Source: Eledone cirrhosa
Taxonomy: Eukaryota
Length of the DNA stretch: 64,000 nucleotides
Direction: 5' to 3'
Assembly (NCBI GenBank): GCA_964016885.1
Contig: OZ024746.1
Coordinates: forward strand, 61,194,001 to 61,258,000
Made by a program: the position numbers and the translations under genes. A model generated the notes under the pieces. That model was not told the origin of the DNA and made no database searches. It was given only the letters and a program-made list of their open reading frames with translations. The stretch's first letter is position 1. Each line of letters begins with the position of its first letter. This document shows, piece after piece, positions 34,547-35,262 of the stretch.

Positions 34547-35262
34547 AATTTGGATATAATGCTCTGAAATAGCGATATATATGTGAAGACAAACATAGAA
34601 TATTCGAAAATATTCTGTATGTTTATAATAAACATTTCGAAGACCCAATCGCTATAGAATAGAATACGTCACGTAATACAATTTGAGATTCTCGATAAAA
34701 GCAAGGGAAGTAACCTACGCGTTTCATTCTTATTAGAAATCATCAGGATTACATATCCAGTGCTTTTATCGAGAATGACACAGCTAGAGACTTATAGAAT
34801 ACTTAGCTGTGTACAGGAACTGGTTTGAAAGAGCGGTTGCCGGTCCGGCAGAAATTAGAATTTGGATATAATGCTCTGAAATAGCGATATATATGTGTCT
34901 TCGAAATGTTTATTATAAACATACAGAATATTTTCGAATATTCTATGTTTGTCTTCACATATATATCGCTATTTCAGAGCATTATATCCAAATTCTAATT
35001 TCTGCCGGACCGGCAACCGCTCTTTCAAACCAGTTCCTGTACACAGCTAAGTATTCTATAAGTCTCTAGCTGTGTCATTCTCGATAAAAGCACTGGATAT
35101 GTAATCCTGATGATTTCTAATAAGAATGAAACGCGTAGGTTACTTCCCTTGCTTTTATCGAGAATCTCAAATTGTAATACGTGACGTATTCTATTCTATA
35201 GCGATTGGGTCTTCGAAATGTTTATTATAAACATACAGAATATTTTCGAATATTCTATGTTT
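34547..35262. mobile_element. Head-to-head pair of >1-unit copies of a 312-nt HHR-containing monomer (retrozyme-like)
   Basis: Left arm 34547-34897 repeats AATTTGGATATAATGCTC at 34547 and 34859; right arm 34898-35262 repeats TCTTCGAAATG at 34898 and 35210 (period 312 in both); HHRs at 34710-34752 (-) and 35101-35143 (+). Confidence 0.9.
35101..35143 (+). ncRNA. Type I minimal hammerhead ribozyme
   Basis: GTAATC-CTGATGA-tTTCTaataAGAAt-GAAAC-gc-GTA-GGTTAC; 6-bp stem I, palindromic ACGCGT stem III, predicted cleavage after GUA (35137). Confidence 0.85.

Follow-up and report, generated by a model that had tools for sequence, protein, structure and literature searches.

Non-LTR retrozymes of metazoans have been described from axolotl (Rtz_353 with the hammerhead HHR_Amex2), coral and mussel (PMC7229834). 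A circular template for Penelope-like elements and retrozymes has been a proposal since 2014 (PMC4209133, PMC7229834); the non-LTR retrozymes, their circular RNAs and, as a proposal, the copying of the circle into tandem cDNA by a Penelope enzyme are already published (PMC7229834, PMC4209133). Retrozymes have been argued to descend from Penelope pLTRs as non-autonomous derivatives, the source of their arrays was discussed as local amplification plus unequal crossover, and 8 of 9 frog retrozyme dimers stayed uncleaved in vitro (bioRxiv 10.64898/2026.07.22.740005). Penelope-like elements show an inverted 5′-truncated copy, a 30–40-nt tail at one end and (TA)n targets (PMC8557442, PMC3846280), and the making of their tandem and inverted insertions was called undefined (PMC8557442). 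In the anole element the tail is the interval between two internal start sites; the purified anole Penelope protein, predicted to be a dimer, nicks AT-rich DNA and extends both strands, and in vitro it used unprocessed RNA, hammerhead cleavage being unneeded (PMC11167929).

The locus described here lies in a 64,000-nt stretch of DNA (the window) from a microsatellite-rich animal genome of 3.0 Gb. It comprised two arms of a 312-nt unit joined head to head, with the following features (phase 1 of the unit is window position 34898).

30737–34546, no strand: left target flank, a 3.8-kb (TA)n-rich microsatellite
34547–34897, minus strand: left arm of 351 nt, running from unit phase 59 to 97 and ending on the outside at fixed site A, CCAAATT followed by (TA)n
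34897–34898, no strand: head-to-head inversion junction, 1 nt common to both arms (base 34897 fits either)
34897–35262, plus strand: right arm of 365 nt together with the shared base, running from phase 312/1 to 53 and ending on the outside in the fixed site B region
34898–35209, plus strand: one full 312-nt unit, 35% G+C
34898–34999, plus strand: hairpin-plus-tail module, 75–80% alike in other retrozyme families with different hammerheads
34958–34993, plus strand: "tail" of ~35 nt between sites B and A, phases 61–96, starting with CATATATAT and able to pair with a (TA)n primer
34710–34752, minus strand: left-arm hammerhead (type I motif), its cut predicted after 34716
35101–35143, plus strand: right-arm hammerhead (type I motif), its cut predicted after 35137; stem III is a short palindrome, and action as a dimer is predicted
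35077–35165, plus strand: long stem extending stem I, with a perfect 16-bp inverted repeat (35077–35092 and 35150–35165)
35263–35482, no strand: right target flank, a (TA)n/(TACA)n microsatellite

The period was exactly 312 in the left and the right arm, the former making one full turn plus 39 nt and the latter one turn plus 53 nt, and the arms differed by one mismatch (34676/35177). The original prediction that arms of 351 and 365 nt each cover a full 312-nt unit plus overlap and are nearly identical was thus borne out; so was its claim that both cross the hammerhead cleavage site (GTA, 35135–35137) intact, the site being unchanged in either arm. It had also read the different start and stop points of the arms as the footprint of a circle. 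This did not hold: the outer ends were two fixed sites ~35 nt apart, not a permutation, and such different outer ends are the known Penelope "tail" and no sign of a circle. A single locus proves nothing on circles; arms of 1.1 units could arise from any genomic dimer transcript, and the window locus is an ordinary short member of its family.

Among the raw-data contigs listed from four runs (1,159 pieces fell outside this list), no contig spanned the inversion junction of the window; loose (TA)n ends at both fixed sites were seen among the contigs listed for two data sets, X1 and X2. Head-to-head anatomy was present in 90 cases at other loci, indicating that an assembly artefact at the window locus is unlikely. 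One 342-nt contig closing on the 312-nt unit (X4, organism B) and a 267-nt piece spanning the unit boundary (X5), run type unrecorded, were left uncounted as signs of a circle because tandem DNA gives the same result.

As read from the sequence, the hammerhead comprised stem I (GTAATC/GGTTAC), CTGATGA...GAAACGC, a stem II whose basal pair is U-U and a stem III formed by the short palindrome ACGCGT. It is a motif call and the ribozyme is a predicted one. The U-U pair is shared with HHR_Amex2 (PMC7229834), and hammerheads with a short palindromic stem III have been described as working in pairs (dimer model; PMC4209133). An Rfam scan of the window locus gave no match at the gathering score; below it, both arms had a weak HH9 match (19.9 bits vs 52, E 0.041; 35092–35157 in the right arm). 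Rfam miRNA matches at the locus were rejected, as they reflected only the palindrome. The variants T217A, G242A and A207G within the family kept the hammerhead structure. A one-base insertion at unit phase 242, 2–3 nt downstream of the cleavage site, was observed in L122, L129, L197, L205, L208, L215 and L225; it was C in five loci and T in two, and fixed in all units. Folding of the unit against shuffles gave z −6.6 as a linear molecule and z −4.1 as a circle (60 shuffles). In six frames of the unit array the longest stop-free stretch was 59 codons, indicating that the unit is non-coding, and there was no LTR.

The hammerhead core pattern had 14,242 matches in the genome (reversed control, 0). 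A search with the 312-nt unit yielded 497 candidates, 40 of which were scored, and a site-A junction pattern yielded 771 forward and 1,378 reverse matches, many of the latter listed twice. We examined 115 loci, part of a family of at least several hundred insertions, in three samples: the 40 closest by identity, the first 15 with the core pattern on contig C1, and 60 on C1 that were picked for a site-A end and hence conditioned on one end. Of these loci 93 were complete and two-armed, 1 was two-armed and cut, and 21 were single-armed or cut by the extracted stretch. They were dispersed, with periods of 308–312 nt and arms ranging from under one unit to >23 units.

Like metazoan non-LTR retrozymes (PMC7229834), these were non-coding, dispersed tandem units in the 150–450-nt range, of low G+C (under 50%), with a type I hammerhead motif of short stem III in each unit; thousands of copies and target duplications of >4 bp are also common to both, and a circular template was proposed there. 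Unlike them, nearly all insertions here were two-armed with two fixed ends, and the words "inverted", "tail", "head-to-head" and "microsatellite" are absent from the main text of PMC7229834 (supplements may differ). Circular RNA was demonstrated there by northern blot; the element here is known from genome sequence alone. Inversion, tail and AT-rich targets are shared with endonuclease-bearing Penelope-like elements (anole Poseidon, PMC11167929; Adineta Penelope, PMC3846280; Naiad/Neptune, PMC8557442). In contrast to Penelope-like elements, the arms here were multi-unit arrays and the unit was without an ORF: it had Penelope-like ends only, and not the ORF with RT and GIY-YIG of an autonomous member. 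The retrozymes of bioRxiv 10.64898/2026.07.22.740005 have similar unit sizes, and the same class of mobilising partner was concluded for them. That work relies on co-occurrence and pLTR homology, whereas here the link is the insertion anatomy, a homologous pLTR not being found; "tail", "head-to-head" and "target site" have 0 occurrences in its main text (supplements may differ). We are confident that the element is a non-LTR retrozyme moved by Penelope-type machinery.

Outer ends (the RNA 3′ ends) were placed on the inner unit of the same locus. Of 58 exactly mapped site-A ends, 54 fell at phase 95–97; of 71 mapped site-B ends, 32 fell at phase 60 and 17 at phase 69 (five site-B values below phase 45 were probable mapping failures). 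The A–B offset, for the 34 loci with both ends mapped, was 35–37 nt in 21 and 26–29 nt in 12, with a mode of 35 nt. One A and one B end were present in 90/93 complete two-armed loci, one off-site end in 3/93 and the same site twice in 0/93. In the two samples not selected by an end, 37/40 loci had one A and one B end and the other 3 had one off-site end; on-site pairs were therefore one-of-each in 37/37 (p = 7e-12 at even odds). The off-site end of L036 fell on an internal look-alike of site A, and L121, with a 33-nt piece ending at phase 79, was counted as off-site.

Whether site B mapped to phase 60 or 69 depended on the target (TA)n replacing or keeping the CATATATAT of the unit, suggesting primer pairing at site B. 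This pairing covered 8–10 nt, while the anole element started without homology (PMC11167929). Two internal start sites downstream of the hammerhead, with both strands primed, are common to the present element and anole Poseidon; one site per arm and a shared template were counted here, whereas the anole in vitro work found the same start-site use on either strand and did not match up the two starts of single events (PMC11167929). Readable direct target duplications were found at 14/93 two-armed loci and were 12–16 nt long at six, including the non-microsatellite target of L135, indicating that both arms were one event; the remaining loci had a pure (TA)n target or no duplication by this test. 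Targets were AT-rich or (TA)n, the median alternating run beyond the ends being 39–48 nt. The original prediction had counted fixed ends shared by all genomic copies against its template. When the 115 loci were mapped on the unit, the outer ends were indeed shared and fixed, yet the circle is not thereby refuted; the inner ends alone were free.

In the flanks of L123, L126, L128, L179, L195 and L221, an interrupted TA motif of the target was seemingly reiterated in tandem on both sides. Retrozyme insertion may seed or lengthen microsatellites (cf. the 3.8-kb TA array left of the window locus). Copies at L031, L034, L121 and L192 lay within another hammerhead-bearing repeat with a TA-rich stem III, and retrozymes may target each other.

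Haplotypes of the units were compared within and between arms. Columns at ends and indels (phases 58–69, 84–97, 241–245 and 268–275; also 240 for the arm-uniformity count) were omitted from the spectra. The majority haplotype was the same in both arms at 25/27 loci with at least two full units per arm, against 84/702 cross-locus pairs (12%). Among 58 loci with at least three units there were 27 haplotypes, two of which covered 22/58 loci, and all units were identical in 20/58. Minor states were uniform over both arms for 312 locus-columns in 78/94 two-armed loci; 35 were non-uniform, mostly by a single unit. Loci with non-uniform arms, which count against a single circle, included L181 (A206G, GGAAAA/GGGGGGG), L057, L068, L069 and L045. 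Seventeen variants were private all-pass changes, found at a single locus and in each of its passes; 13 were seen in both arms, and T49G of L191, for example, was in 18/18 passes. A change in every unit of both arms requires repeated reading of one RNA base, a pattern that a monomer circle would supply.

A>G within paired RNA is a mark of A-to-I editing. On the RNA strand, A>G made up 7/17 private all-pass variants but 12/200 single-unit changes (Fisher p = 1.4e-4), the latter being led by C>T and G>A. A260G recurred in 6 loci on 6 backgrounds and A206G in 5 loci on 3, both phases being inside the long stem. By the NUH rule a GUG hammerhead site should not cut, and a G at the cleavage base, found in 3/3 passes of L066 and 5/6 of L045, therefore fits editing after ligation. 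These data suggest that the private all-pass variants are rich in A>G as RNA editing of one repeatedly copied molecule would make them. Recurrence on several backgrounds was also seen for changes other than A>G (A118T on 4, C196T on 5). A>G turns A-U pairs into G-U, so selection on structure may contribute to the excess. The 5′ neighbour of A>G sites was U in 6/13 vs 34/91 for all A, giving no clear bias at these small counts.

From the arrays we propose, with moderate confidence, that a Penelope-like enzyme acting in trans would prime both target strands on one circular 312-nt monomer RNA. The steps would be as follows: (1) an array transcript would be cut by paired hammerheads and ligated into a monomer circle; (2) the circle would sometimes be A-to-I edited in the long stem; (3) an enzyme dimer would nick an AT-rich target on both strands, the nicks being staggered by ~14 bp; (4) the two 3′ ends would prime on the same circle, one at site A and one at site B, where base-pairing between (TA)n and the internal AUAUAUAU would help; (5) by strand displacement, each cDNA would be extended round the circle over a variable distance; and (6) the two cDNA ends would be joined by microhomology. 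Later duplication at the DNA level would lengthen some arrays. Penelope enzymes are not known to have RNase H. Junctions (n=92) had an overlap of 1–7 nt in 49 cases and >7 nt in 15, were blunt in 9 and held extra bases in 19. The longest complete arm was 5.9 kb, and arms in two cut loci exceeded 7.2 kb. The original prediction had been a recent event of reverse transcription, either around a circular RNA or along a multimer left uncleaved; it fits the family-wide data, which lean to the circle over the multimer, and its argument from the arm ends fails. More tentatively, the arrays may be a genomic record of the Penelope cycle, with a dimer on one closed RNA, two simultaneous rolling-circle cDNAs and A-to-I edits in every unit.

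The same two-site Penelope priming could act on one linear multimer, transcribed from a homogeneous source array and left uncleaved, with both cDNAs beginning in the same unit and copying the same RNA towards its 5′ end; this is the alternative that survives best, and we consider it unlikely. At L221 the outer two passes of both arms were of one haplotype and the inner passes of another. This mirror mosaic supports a shared template but cannot arise from a single monomer circle; it fits a multimer that both primers read from the same unit, a joint template switch, or central replacement in an older copy. Weak cleavage is predicted from the short stem III, and in vitro the anole element did not depend on hammerhead cleavage, while none of its RNA-seq reads stopped at the cut site (PMC11167929). 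The two haplotypes that cover 22 loci also suggest that few source arrays could feed many copies. However, a multimer has no one-step way of fixing a new change in every unit of both arms, as the 17 private all-pass variants would need, and its editing should leave single-unit A>G, which at 12 was rarer than T>C at 25. Arms of >23 units would demand sources of at least that length. The 11 conserved core bases of the hammerhead showed no all-pass change, against three states at free position 7, which would fit a working ribozyme and is not significant alone.

A monomer that is cleaved but left unligated, its ends kept together by stem I, would be a nicked circle on which the enzyme repeatedly jumps from the 5′ end to the 3′ end, and should leave the same clonal, all-pass signature as the closed circle. 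Stem I and its 16-bp extension would bring the monomer ends together, and Penelope enzymes are relatives of telomerase (PMC8557442). We nevertheless regard this template as improbable from the inner ends and the cleavage-site passes. No indel within 1 nt of the cleavage site was seen in 257 passes from the first 55 loci. End-to-end template jumps usually leave scars. Inner ends were scattered round the unit (13-nt bins, chi-square p = 0.085) and did not pile up at the cleavage site, with 2/211 lying ≤3 nt from it vs 4.7 expected.

It could also be argued that the insertions began short, grew later through unequal crossing-over or slippage and were homogenised across the inversion by gene conversion, which would make array length and clonality uninformative on the RNA template. 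Unit-specific changes repeated at 4- or 5-unit spacing in five arrays (L064, L166, L170, L171 and L201), indicating that later growth at the DNA level makes arms longer and more uniform internally, and at L181 the state of the other arm was confined to the inner two passes, as expected of conversion close to the midpoint of a palindrome. As the general explanation this is distinctly improbable: older loci kept many unit-specific changes unshared between arms (L043, with 2/11 units identical) while long young loci had none (15/15 units identical at L168 and 14/14 at L191), and DNA processes give no sense-strand A>G excess.

In LINE-1 twin priming, primers from both target strands give an inversion joined by microhomology, the pieces abutting on one linear RNA. 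The present insertions likewise involve two-strand primers and a microhomology-joined inversion; unlike those of LINE-1, their arms overlap over whole units, head to head, from two fixed sites. Self-priming fold-back of one cDNA has been proposed for inverted pLTRs (PMC3846280). In favour of these routes, 72/91 arm pairs were formally nested, some junctions used built-in hairpins (the long stem served as junction homology in L125, L135 and L215), and the inner end of the window's left arm (59) is near the outer end of its right arm (53). Fold-back copying and classic twin priming on one linear RNA are very improbable and were rejected as general routes: 19/91 pairs, the window locus included, were not nested, which excludes fold-back copying for those loci; site-A arms stopped ≤15 nt from site B at chance (9/91 vs 9.0 expected), which excludes abutting twin priming as a rule; and either arm could be the longer (site-A arm in 45/88), the lengths of paired arms being weakly correlated (rho 0.32, n=88).

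The core motif of the hairpin-plus-tail module had 24,933 matches in the genome (control, 0). The module is common to retrozyme families with other hammerheads, suggesting a common enzyme, and is likely a site to which such an enzyme would bind. Penelope-like ORFs were abundant, with 10,596 GIY-YIG candidates in the genome and RT plus GIY-YIG in L101 and L111. No module joined to an ORF was found among 50 + 30 + 25 loci examined, and no autonomous partner bearing it was found by a GIY-YIG family search, at 20 long-ORF loci, with a module profile, in a young RT+GIY-YIG family or with a distant relative of the module. The ORFs neighbouring L132 were rejected as unrelated neighbours. The young RT+GIY-YIG family likewise gave no link to the module: it has the same two-end (TA)n anatomy, but its tail is ~65 nt and there was no sequence match. 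It adjoined a retrozyme in 4/30 of its own loci and in 2/226 immediate retrozyme flanks, which shared targets can explain.

Further observations were made on these repeats. The young RT+GIY-YIG element is probably Neptune-like, judged by its Cys linker (clade name as in PMC8557442). Its fixed ends lie ~65 nt apart (vs 30–40 nt described), its copies are ~98% alike in protein, and most listed copies shift frame between the N-terminal part and the RT. A short head-to-head end pair of this element was found at window positions 25991–26370 (also at L101 and L226–L255). L256–L280 belong to an older non-coding family of ~316–330-nt units without an ORF; it bears a distantly related form of the module and likewise occurs both in tandem and inverted. 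A second retrozyme family lies at 39534–39760 (minus strand), with a different hammerhead and the same module 77–79% alike; its relatives are L072, L154 and L159–L162.

Elsewhere in the window, hammerhead-like cores of several families were seen in at least 10 other places (4519, 13803, 15407/15414, 19678, 28664, 39733, 55922, 59896/60492, 62577/62657 and 63909), three of which are pairs on opposite strands; distinct families of retrozymes or pLTRs seem to be numerous in this genome. An intronless frame of 353 codons at 52439–53497 (plus strand) encodes a GPCR of the rhodopsin family (PF00001, E 2e-20). A 462-codon frame at 16779–18164 (minus strand) had no Pfam match and by eye resembles the broken retrotransposon frames of L132 (1287–3532), which we take to be Hydra-clade Penelope-like. 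Minisatellites were located at 5301–5499 (37-nt units), 14575–14836 (128-nt), 38440–38671 (58-nt) and 40573–40989 (91-nt).

A literature search, which left most subscription journals and supplements outside, found no two-armed retrozyme arrays, no use of one start site per arm and no editing marks fixed through arrays. The present analysis ties retrozymes to Penelope enzymes by insertion anatomy, with two start sites used one per strand per event. It makes the question of the circle countable, since hundreds of young multi-unit two-armed insertions are available and every one of their units reads the template anew, and it provides a 312-nt non-coding substrate suited to a direct test of circle versus multimer. 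If the record of two rolling-circle cDNAs is true, one step would account for the tail, the inversion and the partial tandem copies seen in Penelope-like elements. Should the A>G excess reflect editing, RNA edits would become heritable by way of the circle, and RNA editing would, if that record is true, be a main source of new heritable retrozyme haplotypes.
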